A stretch of DNA of 61,572 nucleotides, the filler included, from Bacteriovoracaceae bacterium (GTDB lineage Bacteria > Bdellovibrionota > Bacteriovoracia > Bacteriovoracales > Bacteriovoracaceae), in the NCBI GenBank assembly GCA_018649885.1. It is 5 parts of 5 records of this genome, joined end to end, with 100 filler letters (N's around TTAATTAATTAA, not from the genome) between each part and the next. Parts side by side here need not be neighbours in the genome. Positions count along the whole stretch, not along the records: positions 28,962 to 50,302 come from JABIHA010000024.1; 4 more parts are not named here. One strand, written 5' to 3'. Every line of letters begins with the position of its first letter. Positions within the stretch are counted from its first letter, which is position 1. Positions 23,722-55,858 of this stretch are shown here, piece after piece. The notes below the pieces were generated by a model. That model did no database searches. It saw only the letters and a program-made list of their open reading frames with translations, and was not told the DNA's origin. Both the position numbers and the translations under genes were made by a program.

Positions 23722-23821
23722 NNNNNNNNNNNNNNNNNNNNNNNNNNNNNNNNNNNNNNNNNNNNTTAATTAATTAANNNNNNNNNNNNNNNNNNNNNNN
23801 NNNNNNNNNNNNNNNNNNNNN
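23722..23821. other. Artificial contig linker
   Basis: N run with central TTAATTAATTAA, 100 nt. Confidence 0.98.
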
Positions 23822-28861: not shown

Positions 28862-28961
28862 NNNNNNNNNNNNNNNNNNNNNNNNNNNNNNNNNNNNNNN
28901 NNNNNTTAATTAATTAANNNNNNNNNNNNNNNNNNNNNNNNNNNNNNNNNNNNNNNNNNNN
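28862..28961. other. Artificial contig linker
   Basis: N run with central TTAATTAATTAA. Confidence 0.98.
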
Positions 28962-30001
<1,040 letters not shown>

Positions 30002-33940: not shown

Positions 33941-34621
33941 CTATATTTTGTCACATTCTCTTTTAAGTTTCATGATGTTTGCATTTGAGTAAAGCTCTTC
34001 AGCAATGGCTGAACAACAAACTCGATCAGACTTAACTGGAGATCCCAAAACCTGTGAACAACGTCCTTTGCCTTTTTTGTCGGCGTAAATATCAACACAA
34101 GCAAACTTTAAAGCATCACTTTTTCTTTCGCTAATAAGGCCATCAGCAGCTGCAGCACAACTACTTAAACTAAGGTCTTTTCTTTCTCTTGAAAGACACT
34201 TTGTTTTCAATGCATCATGCTTTGCAGGATCACTTAATTCATCTGCAAGAGCGATACATGTTGCTCCAGATAAAGTTTTTTCGAAGATAGAAACACATCT
34301 TTCTTTTTGAGCTATCTCATTAGAAAGCCTATTCATGTCATCGCCAAGAGCAGTACAAGTAGAAAAACTTAATCTTTTTTCGAATAATCTGCCACATCTA
34401 GCACGTGTGCTATCTTGGTTTGCAGGTAGGGCCATATCGTTGGCAACACCAATACAGCTAGTTAGTGTTAAAGTTGACTTGTTACTATCAAGGCATTTTG
34501 ATTTTGCAACATCTGATCTTTGTAAGTTAGCGATATCATAAGCGTCTAATACACATGAACCAACACTTGAGTAAACATTTGCAGATACGACCATAACCAT
34601 GGCCATTAAGATTTTTTTCAT
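33941..34621 (-). CDS. Secreted cysteine-rich helical repeat protein (about 30-aa repeats)
   Basis: Signal peptide MKKILMAMVMVVSANVYS; repeats of L(S/T)xxxCxxxAD..L.......K..C. Confidence 0.75.
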   Translation of the reverse strand: MKKILMAMVMVVSANVYSSVGSCVLDAYDIANLQRSDVAKSKCLDSNKSTLTLTSCIGVANDMALPANQDSTRARCGRLFEKRLSFSTCTALGDDMNRLSNEIAQKERCVSIFEKTLSGATCIALADELSDPAKHDALKTKCLSRERKDLSLSSCAAAADGLISERKSDALKFACVDIYADKKGKGRCSQVLGSPVKSDRVCCSAIAEELYSNANIMKLKRECDKI

Positions 34622-34868
34622 TGAACTCTCCCTTAATAAAGTTATTTTTTCCAATATGTTTGTTGCAGTGCTACCGAAGATTCAAAGTACTTGGCCAGGA
34701 TTTTTTTCCACTGCGACAAAGATGCTTCTTTTTTACACTTGCAGTGCACAAAAATAGCGCACCAAGTAATGCTTAACATCATGGATTTACTTGCTTTACT
34801 TTGACTTATTGCCAAGAGGAATTAGAATTAAATAAATATTAGATATCAACAACTTCAGATGGAAAGCT

Positions 34869-36229
34869 ATGATTAAATACCTAGTTATCTTCTCCCTACT
34901 ATTTTCCTCTCAACTATTTGCACAAAGCAAAAAAAAGGTTCCTTTTTTGCAGTGGGTTCAAAAAGAAGAAGGTCAAAAAACCAAGAAATCTGGAAAAACA
35001 AAAAAGGTCAAAAAGAAAAAAAAGACCAAAGTAGTACAAGAAGAAATTGTTGAAGAGCAGCTAGAAACCAACTCCAAAGTCACAGTCGAGGTAGAAAAAG
35101 AAGAAGAGGCAATCCAAGAAGAAGACGAGATCTCAAAGGAAATTAATGAGGTTGTTGAAGAAGATAGAGAGAAATCTGAAGCAGAAGCTGAAGAAGAGGT
35201 AATTTTAGAGACGAGCAAAGAAGCAGAAAAAGATGAATTCATCGATTATGAAGATAAAGAGTCTGAAGTTCCAGCTAAGAACTACGATAGTGGGATGAGT
35301 GATCTGGATATTGATGAAATAGAGGCAATCGAGAAAAGTAAGCATAGCAACAAGCTAGATTCTAAGAAAAAGAAGAAAAAAAGCAAAGTTCGATACGAAG
35401 ATGAAGAAATGGTCGATGAAATCGAAGAGGGCGGAGTCTTAATCGATCAAGACGACCTTGAAGAAGACACCTCTTCTTATGATCAAAAAAAAAAGTAAAT
35501 AAACATGCTGACAGCGCAGTTAAAGGCGACGACTCGCTCTTTGAAGATCCTGAGGCAGACCTTGACTCGGTAAAAAGCGGCGAGGCCAAGACAGATGGTC
35601 TCGAAATTGCGCTTTTTTATTCACTTCTCAAGCTAAATTCTGAAGACAAGGTGACCAAAGGGGATGGAAGCCTTAGCTCTACACTCGTCATAGATCTACA
35701 GCTATCTTGGGATCACAGGTGGAGTCAATTTGTACAAAGCTATGTTGACTACCTTCTCAGCTACCAAAGTTATGACGTCCCAAAAAATAAACCTCTCGAA
35801 AATAGGACCGAGTCATACCACAGTTTTTCCACAGGCCTTGAGTTTCCTATTTCCAAATTGGTTCATCCAATTATTGAGCTCAGTATGCAGCAAAGACCAT
35901 TTTTAAAAGGACTTAATCAAAAAAATATTTCAGTTGAAAGGATTTGGATCCCAGCAGCCTACTTAGGATGGCAATTTGATTTTTGGCAGAAGAAGAACCT
36001 CTTTCTGCTGGGGCAGGCATTTGGAGGATTTCACCTAGAAAGAACAGGTGAGTCTCCTGCTGTAGAAAGTGGGTTTTCAGCAAAACTTAAATTCTTTGCA
36101 CATTGGGCCTTTAAAGAATCGTATCTGCGTGGAATTTTTCAAGTACAGCGTGTATTTCAAGACTCAAGGCAAGCGAGCCAAGATGCTGATAAGTTCTCTC
36201 TTGGCGCTAGCTATGGATTTTTATTCTAG
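34869..36229 (+). CDS. Probable outer-membrane beta-barrel protein with acidic N-terminal region, split by a -1 frameshift at an A10 tract (35485-35494)
   Basis: ORF 34869-35498 has a signal peptide and stops right after A10; the -1 frame is open from the tract through 36229 and ends in YGFLF. Confidence 0.7.
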
Positions 36230-36231
36230 TT

Positions 36232-38187
36232 CTACTTTCTTAGTCTTTTTTCCAGGTAACTTACCCTATCGTTTTTAATTGATTTGGCCAAACCATTAAA
36301 GAACATCACATTTTTGTAATACTCCATATCCTTGGTTTTTTGATATTTTTTAAAATAACTTTTAGAAATGTATCGATACATTCCTACAATAGAATTAATG
36401 CTCAGATCATTTCGAGTGAAATTTTTCTGATCAGTAAAATCGATATTGTTTTGAACTCCAAAAAATGCCCAGACGGCTTCATCTATAACGCCCGGATCAA
36501 CTTTTTTGCTTAACACTTCTAAGCTAGCAGCGTGATCATTTCTATTTATAGATTTCAAGTATTCTGTAAACCTTGCAGGTGTAACTGATTTTAAGTTAAT
36601 TCTATCAAGGTAACCTACGAACTTTCTTCTGATAAAATCACCTGATTCAAATTCAATAAATAATGGAGAGCTTAGTGGATAGGCAGTTTTCTTAAGTAGA
36701 TGGATCTTGTATTTTCCGAAAGTACTAAACTTCTCTGGTACTTGAGAACCTTTACGTGTGTACTGTTCCGACATTCGCCACAGATAATATTTTTCTTGAA
36801 GGCCATCACAGTTTTCATCAAAACTTTTCATATAAGGAAGAGAAAGATATGAAAAATTATTTGATTCTCGTAGACACAAATTATGTGCCTTACGCCCTTG
36901 ATCTACTAGTGTTCGAAAGAACACATCAGTAGGAAATTCTTTTTCTTGAAACTTGGAAATAAAAGATTCAAAGTTTTGGTAAAATTCAAAAATATTTTGC
37001 GATTGAAAAGATGCCATCGTCATAAAAATATCTTCTTCAAAACCATTGTTCAAAAGCCAGTAGAATATATGAGCGACAATTCCTTCTTTAGAGTAAACGG
37101 CATCATTAGCTGTTTCATATTGGCCTGAGTTTATTTGAGTCATATCGACTACACTTATGCCTGGGTGGTACACAACCTTAAATCGATTAATCAGATTAAT
37201 CCATTGTCCCTTTCTGATATATCTATTTTCAAAAACGGCTTGCCCCCTCGAGGCATTTAAAAGCTCTCCTACGAATTGATCGGCTTGTGTAATATTCTTA
37301 TATAGCAATTTGGGAATGGTAGTTACAGCGTCGCCAATATACAGTGCTATATTATTGTCGAAAGAATCAGTCATTCCTTGAAATTCTTCAAAAAAATCTT
37401 TTAAAAAAGGTGTGTTTACTTCATCAAAGTTTTCGGGGAATTTTTTCCGTAGATAGGACTCTACTCCAATGGCAAATCCTTCGTAGAACGCCATGTAGGG
37501 ATCTGTCACTACGGAGACGTCGTGGAATTCTTTTGACTCAGACTTGAGTACAAGCTTGGTCATATTCTCCACTCCATATAGGTCTTGCATTAGGCCGTGG
37601 GCAAGCTCATGGGCGATAGTAATTTCAAAAACTCCTTTATCTAGGAGAGCGCTATTACTCATAGTTTTAATAAACTTACCCATTTGCCCATCTTCAGAAA
37701 AAATCATATTGGAGAAACTCTTCCCTGATTTCTTGCTATAATCGGTTAAGTAAAAATAACCCCCAGGAACAAAAAGTGTTCCGAGTCCCAATATCTTTTT
37801 TGATCCCACATAGATGAGGTTTTCTTCACAGACGTCTTTATGTCCAGAAATTTTTCTTCCCAGAATTTTGAGACGATTTACTTCCGCAATAATTTTTGAA
37901 TGTTTCAATATATCTAATACTAACAAGGACTCAATGCTTAGCTCTCTTCGATCCATTCTCTTTAGAAAGTGTATCTCTGCCTTTCCGGCGGGATTTGTTA
38001 TTTTAATTTTGCCACTTCCTTCCTGGATAAGGCACTTCATGCGATCAATTTTCTTATCACAAGGGATTTTTTGAGGGTTGGGATTTTCGACTATATCCAC
38101 TGGAATAAACTCTAGGTTTGTGCAATGTTTTGCTATTGCTTGGTAATTAAAAAATACCAATAAAAATGATATAATCAATTTTTTCAC
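36232..38187 (-). CDS. Secreted hypothetical protein with zincin HEXXH motif
   Basis: GGGAG RBS plus GTG at 38187 with signal peptide; IAHELAHG followed by AFYEGFA. Confidence 0.7.
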   Translation of the reverse strand: MKKLIISFLLVFFNYQAIAKHCTNLEFIPVDIVENPNPQKIPCDKKIDRMKCLIQEGSGKIKITNPAGKAEIHFLKRMDRRELSIESLLVLDILKHSKIIAEVNRLKILGRKISGHKDVCEENLIYVGSKKILGLGTLFVPGGYFYLTDYSKKSGKSFSNMIFSEDGQMGKFIKTMSNSALLDKGVFEITIAHELAHGLMQDLYGVENMTKLVLKSESKEFHDVSVVTDPYMAFYEGFAIGVESYLRKKFPENFDEVNTPFLKDFFEEFQGMTDSFDNNIALYIGDAVTTIPKLLYKNITQADQFVGELLNASRGQAVFENRYIRKGQWINLINRFKVVYHPGISVVDMTQINSGQYETANDAVYSKEGIVAHIFYWLLNNGFEEDIFMTMASFQSQNIFEFYQNFESFISKFQEKEFPTDVFFRTLVDQGRKAHNLCLRESNNFSYLSLPYMKSFDENCDGLQEKYYLWRMSEQYTRKGSQVPEKFSTFGKYKIHLLKKTAYPLSSPLFIEFESGDFIRRKFVGYLDRINLKSVTPARFTEYLKSINRNDHAASLEVLSKKVDPGVIDEAVWAFFGVQNNIDFTDQKNFTRNDLSINSIVGMYRYISKSYFKKYQKTKDMEYYKNVMFFNGLAKSIKNDRVSYLEKRLRK

Positions 38188-38349
38188 TAATTTCTCCCAA
38201 TCAGTTTCTTCATCTAACCCTGATGAAACGCTACGAAGGAAAATATGATATTTCATGGACATTGAAAAAATTGCGTTTCACTAATTGTGAAATGTAAGAA
38301 TTTATGTTTCTTGATAACAGGAAATAATGAAAAAAATACAGAGGAAGGC

Positions 38350-38390
38350 AAAAAAAAACCTCGATGCTCTAAGGAACTTGAGCATCGAGG
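38350..38390 (-). terminator. Strong Rho-independent terminator
   Basis: 11-bp perfect stem CCTCGATGCTC/GAGCATCGAGG followed by a T run on the minus strand. Confidence 0.85.
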
Positions 38391-38936
38391 GGTATATAAG
38401 AAAGACTTAGTTTTAATAAAGTCATTTATCTAAAAATGTACAATATAACTTTCTTCTATCCGGGCCTAAACTGCGATCAGAAGGCCTCCAAAATAAGGGG
38501 TCATGCCCCACGTTACGTTCTCAAGCTCACAACCGAATAAATCAAACCTCCTATCTAAAGTCACCAATCCATCCTTAAGCTTAAAAGAACTCACCAATGT
38601 GAATGTCTAAAAAATCAAAACCCAAATAAATACAGCTAAGGGTCCAATATACCTCCTCCAGAGAACCTGCCCCCACCAGATAACGCTCACCACGCACCCG
38701 GACCCGCTTTGTTATTCGCCGGCAATTAACCGACTTGAGGACCATCTCTTTACTCCGCTTCGGCAACTCCAAACCCATAGTAAAACCTTAGGGCGAAGCT
38801 TTGTTCCCGGCCTTTTAAGTACCGGTCACCCTTATCGACGGGGTTTCACACTCCTCCCCTCCATCATCCGAAATCCTTAGCTTCGCCTGCGCATAAGCGA
38901 AAATTCAGATGCACTATGGGACCAAGTGCTACAACA
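38350..38936 (-). ncRNA. Candidate large structured non-coding RNA, about 590 nt, family unrecognised
   Basis: GC-enriched, no credible ORF, nested long-range helices, bounded by a promoter and a terminator. Confidence 0.55.
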
Positions 38937-38941
38937 AGCTC

Positions 38942-38970
38942 ATTTTAATGAATGTTTACTTTTCCACCAA
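38942..38970 (-). promoter_or_regulatory. Putative sigma-70 promoter for the ncRNA candidate
   Basis: TTGGTG-17 nt-TAAAAT. Confidence 0.45.
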
Positions 38971-39238
38971 GTGGTTTTTGATAGGCCCTAAAAACAAAGC
39001 TCAGTGACCAATTATTTCTTTGGGTTAGAAGAAGTTTTAAAATTTTTTACAAAATGATGGTGTAACCACGGGCACTTACAAAATTAATGAAGAAAATCAA
39101 TACGATGGGTTGATATTAAATAGCAATTATATGGTGGGAGTGCCTCAAAAGATTGTCCTTAAAGACCTATATTCAGTGAAATTAGAAATTGATTTTTAAA
39201 CAAATTCCATGGGCGAAGTAAACACTACTTTGATGCCT

Positions 39239-40252
39239 TTAGGCCTTCTTACTTACTATCTCGTGAAATTCAATTAATTCGCTTGAGGTCACAGTCGCTG
39301 TTCCCCTTTTGCCAACAACTACGCCTGAGGCCAGATTCGACATAAGAGCAGCATCTTTTAAGCTAGCACCCGAAAGTAGGCTTGCACATAGAACACTTAT
39401 TGCTGTGTCTCCTGCTCCTGAGACATCAAAAACATCTCTTCCTACGGTTGGAAGAATTTGCACTTCATCATCTACAGTTTTATCAAGGATTGCGATCCCG
39501 CTACCACCAAGTGTGATTACGACTTTCTCAAGTTCCAATTTATCCATCAGGATATGGGCCATTTCTTCAACTGATTTATCGTAATAACCAAATGAATGGC
39601 ATATGGCCTGAGCTTCTATCAAGTTGGGCTTAAGAAGAGTAGCGCCTTTGTACCACTCAGCATTTGTAGATCTACCAGGGTCAACTGCTACAAGTACTCC
39701 ATTTTTATTCCCCAGCTCTATTAAGGTCTTGCAAACCTTCTCGGTAAATATTCCTTTTGAATAGTCTGAAATTAAAATACAGGAGTGGCCTTTAAACAGG
39801 TCATTGATTCGAAAAATCAATTTATCTTCGTGACTTCCCTCCAAAACCTGACTTGATTCGTAATCGATTCTACATATTTGTTGTCTTTTTGTGAGAATTC
39901 TCTCTTTCAATATTGTGGATCTTCCCTCGGCCCGAACAATTCCCCAAGTTTTAATTCCTTTTTCTTCTAGTAACTCTTCAAAATGGGTTCCGCCTTTATC
40001 TTCGCCCACTACGCCACAAATAGTTGAGGGAACATCAAGAGACTTAAAATTGTCCACCACATTGGCAGCAAGCCCAAGTTTTTGCCATTCTTCTGTTACT
40101 TCTAGAACGGGTACAGGCGCTTCAGGAGAAATTCTTTTAACATCTCCAAAGGTATATTTATCAACCCCTACATCACCCACAATTAGTATGGGATCAATTT
40201 CTTTAAATTTTTCGAGTAAAGTGCTTAATTTTTCTTTTTCAATTAATTCCAT
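39239..40252 (-). CDS. D-glycero-beta-D-manno-heptose-7-phosphate kinase (RfaE domain I / HldA, PfkB family)
   Basis: RISPEAPVPV, SDYSKG, DVSGAGDT, GVVVGKRGTA; start at MELIEK after GAGGTG. Confidence 0.92.
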   Translation of the reverse strand: MELIEKEKLSTLLEKFKEIDPILIVGDVGVDKYTFGDVKRISPEAPVPVLEVTEEWQKLGLAANVVDNFKSLDVPSTICGVVGEDKGGTHFEELLEEKGIKTWGIVRAEGRSTILKERILTKRQQICRIDYESSQVLEGSHEDKLIFRINDLFKGHSCILISDYSKGIFTEKVCKTLIELGNKNGVLVAVDPGRSTNAEWYKGATLLKPNLIEAQAICHSFGYYDKSVEEMAHILMDKLELEKVVITLGGSGIAILDKTVDDEVQILPTVGRDVFDVSGAGDTAISVLCASLLSGASLKDAALMSNLASGVVVGKRGTATVTSSELIEFHEIVSKKA

Positions 40253-40280
40253 AATCACCTCAAGGGCTTCGTCTTTTAAA

Positions 40281-40982
40281 CTAGCCAATTTTTAATTGTG
40301 CCTGCAGTGCTTTTTCTCTAACGAGTTTCTCAAGATTATCCAATACAAGATCTTTAGTCATGTCCGATGTATCGAATAATATAGCGTCACTTGCTTGTTT
40401 GAGGGGTGAGTTCTCCCTCTCCATATCTCTTTTATCTCTGTCTTCAATATCAGCTTTTACTTTATCAATATCTAGTCCGCTTTCACCCTTGTCACTGAGT
40501 TGCTGAAATCTTCTTTGGGCCCTAACTTCAACACTTGCTGTAAAATATATTTTACAAAAAGCCTGGGGAAATACCACTGTTCCGATATCTCTGCCCTCAA
40601 CAACACAAGTCCTTGTATCAGAAAGAGTTCTTTGGAATGCAACCAAGTACTCTCTTACTTTTTCAAGCTTGGAAATTCTTGAAGCATAATCAGAGGCTGT
40701 GTGTTCTCTAATTTGCTGGGTCAGATCCTCGCCATTAACTTTGACCAGACAATCTGCTGAACATCCGTACTCAAAACCAATATGAGATAATTTTTCAGCT
40801 ATGCCACTTTCATCTTCAAGAGAAAATCCTTGATGGTGAAAGTAAACACCAAGGGCGCGGTACATGGCCCCAGTATCCACATAGAGGATTTCCAATTTTT
40901 TTGCCAATGCACGGGCCATGGAACTCTTTCCAGCTCCAGACGGACCATCAATGGCCACAACGTTCTGCAACGAAGCGATCAT
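40281..40982 (-). CDS. cmk: Cytidylate kinase
   Basis: AIDGPSGAGKS, DTGAMYR, EGRDIGTVVFP, RDKRD. Confidence 0.97.
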   Translation of the reverse strand: MIASLQNVVAIDGPSGAGKSSMARALAKKLEILYVDTGAMYRALGVYFHHQGFSLEDESGIAEKLSHIGFEYGCSADCLVKVNGEDLTQQIREHTASDYASRISKLEKVREYLVAFQRTLSDTRTCVVEGRDIGTVVFPQAFCKIYFTASVEVRAQRRFQQLSDKGESGLDIDKVKADIEDRDKRDMERENSPLKQASDAILFDTSDMTKDLVLDNLEKLVREKALQAQLKIG

Positions 40983-41031
40983 AGTTTCTCTCCTTATACT
41001 TCTGTGACATCATAGAATTAATTGATAGAAT

Positions 41032-50302: not shown

Positions 50303-50402
50303 NNNNNNNNNNNNNNNNNNNNNNNNNNNNNNNNNNNNNNNNNNNNTTAATTAATTAANNNNNNNNNNNNNNNNNNNNNNNNNNNNNNNNNNNNNNNNNN
50401 NN
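50303..50402. other. Artificial contig linker
   Basis: N run with central TTAATTAATTAA. Confidence 0.98.
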
Positions 50403-50855: not shown

Positions 50856-50933
50856 GGAGACGTGCCCGAGTGGTCCAAGGGAACGGTTTGCAAAACCGTA
50901 CAGCCGCCGGTTCAAATCCGGCCGTCTCCTCCA
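50856..50933 (+). tRNA. tRNA-Cys (GCA)
   Basis: GGAGACG/CGTCTCC acceptor stem, ACGGT-TTGCAAA-ACCGT anticodon arm, TTCAAAT T-loop, U discriminator, encoded CCA. Confidence 0.95.
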
Positions 50934-53543: not shown

Positions 53544-53633
53544 GGAGAACTGGCCGAGTGGTTGAAGGCGCGCGCTTGGAAAGTGTGTAATGGGGCGACT
53601 CATTCGGGGGTTCGAATCCCCCGTTCTCCGCCA
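53544..53633 (+). tRNA. tRNA-Ser (GGA)
   Basis: GGAGAAC/GTTCTCC acceptor stem, TTGGAAA anticodon loop, long variable arm, GTTCGAATC, encoded CCA. Confidence 0.95.
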
Positions 53634-55758: not shown

Positions 55759-55858
55759 NNNNNNNNNNNNNNNNNNNNNNNNNNNNNNNNNNNNNNNNNN
55801 NNTTAATTAATTAANNNNNNNNNNNNNNNNNNNNNNNNNNNNNNNNNNNNNNNNNNNN
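55759..55858. other. Artificial contig linker
   Basis: N run with central TTAATTAATTAA. Confidence 0.98.

Follow-up and report, generated by a model that had tools for sequence, protein, structure and literature searches.

A candidate stand-alone RNA of Bacteriovoracaceae that joins a variant c-di-GMP-I aptamer, a three-way-junction domain and a mini-ORF

Background

The RNA merRNA of Bdellovibrio bacteriovorus HD100 is a sensor of cyclic di-GMP (c-di-GMP) that in the attack phase is as abundant as all mRNAs together and has no gene to control, and Karunker et al. 2013 report no conservation outside the Bdellovibrio lineage (PMC3627812). Its function has been a puzzle since 2013. In Vc2 of Vibrio cholerae, an aptamer of the c-di-GMP-I type (GEMM-I, Rfam family RF01051), the ligand is contacted by G20, A47 and C92, and C44-G83, a pair between the helices, has been called universally conserved (PMC4744006, PMC5888326). 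Here we analyze a candidate RNA encoded on the minus strand at ~38350-38940 of a 61,572-nt stretch of DNA (the whole of which we call the window) from a Bacteriovoracaceae bacterium, GenBank assembly GCA_018649885.1. We find it somewhat more probable than its alternatives taken together (probability about 0.55) that this region encodes a stand-alone, merRNA-like RNA of ~590 nt whose ligand, once bound, controls how ribosomes reach a mini open reading frame (mini-ORF).

The region had been proposed, in an original prediction made from the sequence of the window, to encode a large stand-alone structured RNA of the merRNA-like kind on the minus strand. The conservation and covariation across relatives that are described below bear this out. 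The same prediction listed no signature of a known RNA (RNase P, tmRNA, SRP or group II) and suggested, among other readings, a new large class. The absence of a riboswitch signature and the new class had to be given up, as the RNA has at its 5' end a variant of a riboswitch aptamer that is already known. The RNA is thus not a wholly new class; it combines a variant GEMM-I aptamer with an undescribed junction domain and a mini-ORF. Sister predators of Bdellovibrio, the Bacteriovoracaceae, have a single-copy RNA of their own, which is built differently from merRNA.

An RNA family of Bacteriovoracaceae

A blastn search of 41 genomes with a 621-nt stretch of the locus as query returned only a 60-nt aptamer piece in one relative and two short chance hits, and therefore covariance models were needed to find homologs. 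RF01051, searched in 61 family genomes, gave weak matches, one per genome, and seven RF01051 loci and the locus matched by blastn were found to share far more than the aptamer. MAFFT alignments of the second domain were not structure-correct; therefore, a model was built from a single sequence with a hand-made structure (R1) and then iterated to a model of seven sequences (R2). R2 detected exactly one match per genome in 61 of 151 family genomes, which represent 33 of 69 genera, with E values from 6.5e-14 to 5e-57.

Outside the family, the two-domain architecture was found only once in a phylum sample of 151 genomes, in a member of family f23 (66.6 bits), and the other ten out-of-family matches in this sample were aptamer-only or weak partial. 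When loci picked out of named genomes by a sequence pattern were scored with R2, at least 27 true matches emerged among the 80 loci listed; the pattern had also hit many unrelated genomes by chance, and 53 of the 80 were unmatched. Among the matches listed, 24 of 27 carry the names Bacteriovorax, Bacteriovoracaceae, Halobacteriovorax or Halobacteriovoraceae, one is labeled Deltaproteobacteria and two have other labels of metagenome-assembled genomes (MAGs). The RNA family thus belongs to the Bacteriovoracaceae in the wide sense, that is, to Bacteriovorax/Halobacteriovorax-like predators. Two true matches (L115 and L120) lie on MAG contigs labeled Flavobacteriaceae and Sulfitobacter; these contigs may be mis-binned Bacteriovoracaceae DNA. 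We found no description of this RNA in Bacteriovoracaceae in the full texts searched, a coverage that leaves out most subscription journals.

The conserved core corresponds to window positions 38634-38847 (minus strand). In an alignment of the 61 sequences, 93.6% of the cells at paired positions were paired, compared with 66.1% after column shuffles and 38-49% when partners were slid by 1-3 columns, although this alignment was fitted to the structure of the model, which favors that structure. Changes on both sides were seen in 39 of 46 pairs, and none of 500 shuffles reached any of the five measures. The four to six pair types per position are beyond what fitting of the alignment alone could produce, and a 38-sequence set gave the same picture. 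Conserved, covarying homologs had been named as a check of the original prediction, and they exist, with one copy in each of the 61 matched genomes.

The claimed GC enrichment was reproduced (G+C content of 0.44-0.53 across the candidate versus 0.30-0.38 in the surroundings). Perfect inverted repeats are more numerous than in mononucleotide shuffles: nine 8-mers were found versus 2.1 (one of 300 shuffles reached nine), and four 9-mers versus 0.57 (8 of 300 reached four). Minimum free energy (MFE) folding of the whole RNA was unexceptional, with z scores of -1.65 for the minus strand and -1.80 for the plus strand.

A small protein gene was weighed as a rival explanation. A 65-aa ORF is indeed present at 38581-38778 (minus strand) and starts at an AUG inside the UAUGG receptor motif of the aptamer. 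Its conservation at the codon level would have spoken for a protein in place of an RNA, but it is not conserved among the 61 relatives, where the equivalent frames have 0-65 codons (median ~10) and the frame of the window is the longest; in the 16 relatives with at least 30 codons the peptides are only 17-31% identical. In addition, the ORF has no Pfam match and the stems covary as RNA, so that we give a protein product next to no credence.

A variant c-di-GMP-I aptamer

The 5' part of the conserved core, 38755-38841 (minus strand), is a variant c-di-GMP-I aptamer, as judged by a match to RF01051, by hand-checked pairs and by covariation in its stems P2 and P3. In a permissive Rfam scan of positions 38200-39250 (1051 nt), RF01051 matched at 38759-38840 of the minus strand with 29.9 bits and an E value of 0.0012, and the full model was covered. 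The presence of a divergent GEMM-I aptamer at the 5' end means that the candidate is not free of known signatures. A strong hit to a known Rfam family had been named as evidence that would count against a new RNA. A known family was indeed matched, but with a score under the gathering threshold and over only 82 of ~590 nt.

A scan of the whole window at Rfam gathering thresholds gave nothing in the RNA region, and a search of the genome of the window with RF01051 at E <= 1 gave no match because the 29.9-bit aptamer falls under the whole-genome threshold. Low scores are common in the family: most members are below 35 bits, and the relatives scored had 36.9, 36.5, 33.9, 33.7, 28.9, 25.8 and 23.9 bits. 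With strict filters and E <= 0.01, RF01051 matched none of 23 family genomes.

P1 is formed by CCGU (38838-38841) and GCGG (38755-38758) in the hand-derived structure; it is 93.9% paired across the 61 sequences and hardly varies. In P2 and P3 the degree of pairing is 89-100%, with changes on both sides in 16 of the 20 pairs. As in GEMM-I RNAs such as Vc2, the fold of the family consists of two hairpins with a GAAA tetraloop, which a regular expression detected in at least 46 of 61 relatives, and a CCUAAG/UAUGG tetraloop receptor, which lies in P3 and is widely kept in relatives; this receptor is of the 11-nt type that GAAA fits. The CAAAGC and UGCC segments and the G20, A47 and C92 positions are also kept. 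Unlike in GEMM-I, the J-segment AAA that follows the first pair reads GAC, and the pair equivalent to C44-G83 is A-U.

Ligand contacts were mapped by counting along the Rfam consensus and checked with the Vc1/Vc2 offsets of PMC4744006, and the correspondence of positions was deduced in this way. By this mapping, the equivalents of G20, A47 and C92 are G, A and C in all 61 sequences. The equivalent of C44-G83 is A-U in 59 of 61, and C-G was found only in the member of family f23. In sequence terms this A-U is a compensatory exchange of the tertiary pair, and it explains part of the low Rfam score. It also adds a GEMM-I variant with A-U in place of the supposedly universal C-G interhelical pair. 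An A at position 20 reportedly marks aptamers for cGAMP (the A20 rule of Kellenberger and Nelson 2015). The G found at this position argues for c-di-GMP over cGAMP as the ligand. The aptamer, though divergent, is probably competent for c-di-GMP.

An undescribed three-way-junction domain

A linker, UAAAG, joins the aptamer to a second domain, a three-way junction at 38660-38749 (minus strand), whose structure was derived by hand from nine relatives. It is closed by P4a (38745-38749 with 38660-38664) and P4b (38737-38740 with 38671-38674), and contains the P5 hairpin (38718-38734), a nearly invariant junction sequence (A)CGGGUC, designated J5/6 (38701-38706), and the P6 hairpin (38676-38701) with a conserved loop UGGNGAG (38686-38692). 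All 22 pairs of P4a, P4b, P5 and P6 change on both sides, and 89.6-94.8% of their cells are paired. No Rfam family matched this domain in the window or in seven relatives, where a scan at E <= 1 gave the aptamer and otherwise weak chance hits only. This conserved three-way junction of ~90 nt is an undescribed domain. Unlike in GEMM-I riboswitches, a conserved second domain thus replaces the simple expression platform, and there is no single downstream gene.

Shine-Dalgarno sequence and mini-ORF

Directly 3' of P4a is a Shine-Dalgarno (SD)-like sequence, GGAGGAGG (38652-38659, minus strand). By eye, a GGAGG-like run occupies this site in most of the 61 sequences, with L084, L091 and L058 departing from it. 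A mini-ORF, UUG GAC CCU UAG (Met-Asp-Pro-stop), follows 4 nt past GGAGGAGG (38636-38647, minus strand). Frames of the form Met-X-Pro-stop (M-X-P-stop) occur in 34 of 61 members, X being Gly in 30, Asp in two, Ser in one and Glu in one; other frames read Met-Gly-Ile, Met-Phe, Met-Glu or start-stop. Altogether, 48 of 61 members have an SD, a start and a stop within five codons, and L084 has a start-stop frame without SD.

The three-codon frames start with UUG or AUG (GUG was seen in other frames), use the four Gly codons near-equally and CCU, CCA or CCG for Pro, and end with any of the three stops. Entropy at their third codon positions is 1.94, 1.45 and 0.99 bits, versus 0-0.8 at first and second positions. 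As a background, M-X-P-stop follows only 6 of 1941 GGAGG-plus-start sites in the genome of the window, and frames of three or fewer sense codons follow 204 of 1941; the mini-ORF counts of the family come from related sequences and are not independent trials. We consider it likely that the mini-ORF is decoded by ribosomes.

Very short frames behind strong ribosome-binding sites are known from the two-codon bar minigenes of phage lambda and from ribosome profiling in E. coli, which revealed start-stop frames. The RNA described here resembles them in its strong SD and in a frame that is just one to three codons long and cannot exist for the sake of its product, and it differs in that these are joined to a riboswitch aptamer and a conserved structured domain.

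The 3' part of the RNA contains a U-rich stretch followed by GACAUUCAC (38599-38607, minus strand; seen in an aligned block). In 39 of 61 members, ACAUU occurs no more than 45 nt past the core, and a GACAUUCA-like motif, which is sometimes doubled, was found 10-45 nt past the core in 39 of 61. A second SD-like sequence, AGGAGG, is located at 38547-38552 (minus strand). In many relatives a second GGAGG lies 60-100 nt after the first, and the short frames behind it are unconserved.

These features raise the question of a trans-acting RNA or a protein sponge, whose active part would be the 3' region with GACAUUCA and the second GGAGG and whose exposure would be set by the aptamer. Riboswitch-controlled small RNAs of the EutX/Rli55 type provide a precedent, and both the occurrence of GACAUUCA-like motifs in 39 of 61 members and the 16 GGA triplets on the RNA strand (four on the opposite strand) would agree with such a role. 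The strand is, as the original prediction stated, G/U-rich (G 28%, U 32%, C 16%) and rich in GGA. However, the 3' part is the least conserved, and the GGA motifs lie outside repeated hairpin loops, unlike those of CsrB-type RNAs. When GACAUUCA was tried as a seed for start regions, GAAUGUY occurred at 13 of 852 sites at start codons of the same genome (1.5%), a frequency within the 1.4-2.2% of seven control heptamers, and this candidate was rejected. The CsrA sponge that had been suggested fares no better, as GGA occurs mostly in SD-like GGAGG, without an array of GGA-loop hairpins: in place of the repeated hairpins of CsrB/RsmZ-type RNAs there is a single conserved loop, UGGNGAG, which contains GGA only if N is A. 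We regard a trans-acting or protein-binding role as very improbable.

Transcription unit and presence in RNA libraries

The claimed promoter hexamers are present on the minus strand as a candidate sigma-70-type promoter, TTGGTG (38965-38970) and TAAAAT (38942-38947) separated by 17 nt, and predict a transcription start at ~38935-38940. It is absent from the output of a standard promoter scan, as no more than 3 of 6 positions of the -35 hexamer agree with the consensus. At the other end, the claimed terminator was found, with an 11-bp stem (38380-38390/38359-38369), a 10-nt loop and a U9 tail (38350-38358) on the minus strand (-19.9 kcal/mol for 38350-38390); a standard terminator scan did not list it because the loop exceeds 8 nt. 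In 53 of 61 relatives, a hairpin that resembles a terminator and ends in a U run is found past the core. The distance from the start of the core to the terminator has a median of 377 nt among relatives, and the copy in the window is among the longest.

A transcript had been named as a further check, and the stretch is found in marine RNA libraries. In 11 metatranscriptome runs from eight studies, all marine or seawater, 20-84% of sampled words of the 621-nt stretch were present. In four of these runs, each from a different study, contigs match 38406-38919 with zero mismatches, and one of them consists entirely of this sequence (a 514-nt contig). Contig ends differ between runs and hence do not mark the ends of the RNA. 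As a contig extends to 38919, the transcript, if real, begins upstream of this position. Neighboring genes (36200-41000) had no contig in the four runs beyond scraps of 18-27 nt, which is uninformative on their expression. The organism of the window is marine, in agreement with the origin of the matching libraries.

Between the predicted start and the core is a 5' leader of ~95 nt (38848-38940, minus strand) that is specific to the window and complementary to both P3 strands through CCCAUAGU and GGCGAAGCU. Two of the three helices quoted in the original prediction lie here: CCCAUAGU (38913-38920) with ACUAUGGG (38774-38781), and GGCGAAGCU (38879-38887) with AGCUUCGCC (38792-38800), all on the minus strand. 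All three helices are perfectly complementary at the coordinates that were given for them, but the first two are not part of the conserved fold and the third, which is discussed below, lacks covariation. The first two join the leader to the 5' and 3' strands of P3 and would therefore compete with the conserved aptamer fold. The leader complements of P3 could serve as an anti-aptamer; none was seen in those upstream sequences of relatives that were read, and predicted leader lengths across the family range from 5 to ~120 nt. The leader also carries GCUAAGGAUUU, which echoes CCUAAGGUUUU of the aptamer and was likewise not seen in the relatives read. The leader may represent an inverted copy of part of the aptamer.

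Genomic neighborhood and the possibility of a cis-acting riboswitch

In 34 of 38 loci, the RNA has a kinase gene of the pfkB family as its upstream neighbor. The downstream neighbor is pheS in 28 of 37 loci (one locus with a curtailed downstream part was dropped from this count) and another gene in nine, five of which are on the opposite strand. The window shows cmk, pfkB, the RNA, four ORFs and then, 4.5 kb further, pheS and pheT. Two of the four ORFs are on the minus strand (676 and 237 aa) and two on the plus strand (192 and 209 aa); together they occupy 33941-38262. They have no Pfam match, and the block looks like an insertion into a conserved locus.

A conserved downstream gene would suit a classical cis-acting c-di-GMP riboswitch with a long expression platform, in which read-through of the terminator would extend into pheST or, in the window, into the 676-aa ORF. 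Riboswitches of the c-di-GMP-I class with long, terminator-bearing expression platforms are on record (PMC11218506); pheS lies on the same strand shortly past the terminator in the 28 loci, and the 676-aa ORF begins 88 nt past the terminator of the window. On the other hand, the downstream gene differs in the nine other loci. In the window the RNA has kept its place beside pfkB, whereas pheST has shifted by 4.5 kb, with two opposite-strand ORFs in between, and this speaks against a cis role being obligatory. From the core to the terminator there are 45-600 nt, the intervening sequence is poorly conserved and no conserved antiterminator was found in it. Furthermore, a termination platform has no need of a three-way junction with an SD and mini-ORF. 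A classical cis riboswitch is therefore unlikely in our view.

Comparison with merRNA and other GEMM-I RNAs

Among Bdellovibrionaceae, RF01051 matched all nine sampled genomes, and in the 3.8-Mb single-contig member the match falls inside the HD100 merRNA coordinates of Karunker et al. (PMC3627812). In a merRNA build of 445 nt, a 5' SD with a 12-codon frame is followed by a second AAGGAGG, the aptamer (nt 235-318) and a terminator. The merRNA-type loci of the nine genomes (L224, L227, L230, L232, L233 and L235-L238) have a strong SD, with a frame of 10-14 codons behind it in seven of nine. These frames, e.g., MRTHEHHDDELK, MKNRIHDHHDEPPK and MRSRIFDHRDKSPK, are located behind AAGGAGG ~180 nt before the aptamer, and a second UAAGGAGGUUCCUAGGG occurs ~35 nt ahead of it. 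For the HD100-like merRNA aptamer (L236:1500-1583, minus strand), a permissive Rfam scan lists the variant family c-di-GMP-I-GGC (RF03167), with 54.3 bits versus a gathering score of 59, in place of RF01051, on which the aptamer had 60.8 bits in a separate search.

Like merRNA, the RNA of Bacteriovoracaceae is a putative stand-alone unit of a Bdellovibrionota predator with a c-di-GMP-I-type aptamer and its own terminator, and both have a strong SD, a tiny frame and, as far as the neighboring genes suggest, no conserved protein gene to regulate. Unlike in merRNA, where the aptamer comes after the micro-ORF, the aptamer is at the 5' end and precedes the mini-ORF. merRNA lacks the three-way-junction domain, and R2 matched none of the nine Bdellovibrionaceae genomes. 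The aptamers also differ in their RF01051 scores, 60.8 bits for merRNA versus mostly below 35 in Bacteriovoracaceae. The flanking genes are a branched-chain aminotransferase gene and mrp for HD100 merRNA, compared with pfkB and pheS; in HD100, pheS is 0.5 Mb from merRNA and preceded by a gap of only 112 nt. The lack of an R2 match, together with the different build and flanks, indicates that the two RNAs are of a shared kind with no detectable ancestry beyond the aptamer. The RNA of Bacteriovoracaceae is a probable functional counterpart of merRNA, not a detectable homolog beyond the aptamer. Both carry an aptamer and a terminator, together with a tiny frame behind a strong ribosome-binding site, and the comparison turns the question of merRNA function into concrete tests.

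The model of Karunker et al. for merRNA (PMC3627812) suggests by analogy a passive reservoir or sponge for c-di-GMP, without switching, in which the SD and mini-ORF would only shield the RNA from nucleases via ribosomes. The ligand-contact nucleotides are kept, as a sponge would require, and the stretch assembles from small metatranscriptomes (39-223 million letters), which would fit high abundance. A 5' SD-like stabilizer is moreover a known device, exemplified by STAB-SD of cryIIIA in Bacillus thuringiensis. However, a sponge leaves unexplained the invariant junction sequence, the conserved loop and the three-way junction itself, the competing pairings of the P1 strand, and the preference for Gly-Pro-stop over any short frame. 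We consider it a rather remote prospect that the RNA acts as a passive sponge.

A third GEMM-I build was found in loci of Bdellovibrionota (L059-L066, families f14, f15 and f19). It shares with the RNA of Bacteriovoracaceae the aptamer, its own terminator and an SD-like AAAGGAGG at P1 (in its 3' strand), but it is only ~250-300 nt long and lacks the three-way junction; a hairpin is followed by a conserved element, UUCAAAGGGGGGUCCCC...GACCCCCCUCUUCA. Most of these loci precede an apparent queE-type radical-SAM gene (motif recognized by eye) or a tRNA.

Competing pairings and a proposed mechanism

Under the reading that we prefer, that of a stand-alone RNA with gated ribosome access, the RNA would sense c-di-GMP through its 5' variant aptamer, and ligand binding would decide ribosome loading on the mini-ORF. 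Two partners are available to the P1 5' strand (CCCGU): the proximal one (ACGG) and the invariant ACGGGU junction of domain 2, with which the pairing would be stronger. This junction could alternatively pair with the mini-ORF, and the pyrimidine-rich P4b 5' strand could pair inside the junction domain or with the SD. A ribosome held on Met-Gly-Pro-stop would either stabilize the RNA or be sequestered by it, Pro-stop being a poor termination context.

For the P1 5' strand, the calculated energies favor the junction: the strand pairs with J5/6 at a mean of -8.7 kcal/mol, versus -4.8 with the proximal P1 partner and -4.2 +/- 0.3 with shuffled J5/6, and this pairing is stronger than P1 in 51 of 51 cases. 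The resulting helix is topologically incompatible with the nested P4. Between J5/6 and the mini-ORF the value is -6.7 versus -5.0 +/- 0.2. In the window this pairing corresponds to the third helix of the original prediction, GGGUCC (38700-38705) with GGACCC (38640-38645) on the minus strand, and reaches -12.9; it is possible in most relatives. The competing pairings make a ligand-dependent rearrangement plausible, and they do not fix its sign.

A more specific version of the mechanism would be a c-di-GMP-gated ribosome trap, in which refolding of domain 2 exposes or hides the SD and ribosomes stay on Met-Gly-Pro-stop. We offer the trap as a speculation that is itself rather improbable. If it were true, an abundant RNA would park and release a sizeable share of ribosomes, of Gly and Pro tRNAs or of a release factor, this would accompany the switch of the predator between attack and growth, and the SD and micro-ORF of merRNA would represent an independent solution of the same kind.

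Several observations weigh against the gated, stand-alone RNA. With regard to distribution, 90 of the 151 family genomes have no R2 match and 12 of 61 members lack a short frame after the SD; therefore, neither feature is universal. With regard to the aptamer, its 29.9 bits are under the RF01051 gathering score of 35, and the P2 loop of the window (38813-38816, minus strand) is UAAA where nearly all relatives have GAAA, which may weaken the aptamer fold. UAAA is not an assembly error because the contigs of the RNA libraries show exactly the sequence of the window. These contigs give neither strand, ends nor level, and RNA libraries can contain DNA. A family-wide scan for sigma-70 promoters gave a mean best score of 8.57, versus 8.30 in shuffled sequences, and the presence of pheS downstream in 28 of 37 loci leaves room for a cis effect on pheST.

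The alternative pairings themselves are also affected. There is little variation in P1, in J5/6 and in much of the mini-ORF, and the pairings between them are therefore without support from covariation. The pseudoknot of J5/6 with the mini-ORF was above the level expected from composition, yet swapping partners between sequences changed nothing, and it was rejected as a candidate. The P4b 5' strand as an anti-SD was set aside too, being only slightly better than shuffled sequence (-5.66 versus -5.26 +/- 0.23, a value reached by 7 of 200 shuffles). Finally, GGNCCN of the mini-ORF lies in a local hairpin in several members and could be kept by RNA pairing instead of by decoding.

Other features of the window

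The window is a chain of contigs separated by runs of N at 23722-23821, 28862-28961, 50303-50402 and 55759-55858, and the RNA locus is on its third piece (contig C15). The assembly of the source genome totals 5.45 Mb, spread over 151 contigs, with a completeness of 92%. The third piece also contains a partial 16S rRNA at 29110-29993 (minus strand), which scored 848.7 bits over model positions 9-873 of 1533. This gene begins ~150 nt from the N spacer, which indicates that it was cut by the contig end and is not a broken gene. In addition, two tRNA genes were detected on the plus strand, at 50856-50930 (61.4 bits) and 53544-53630 (52.6 bits).

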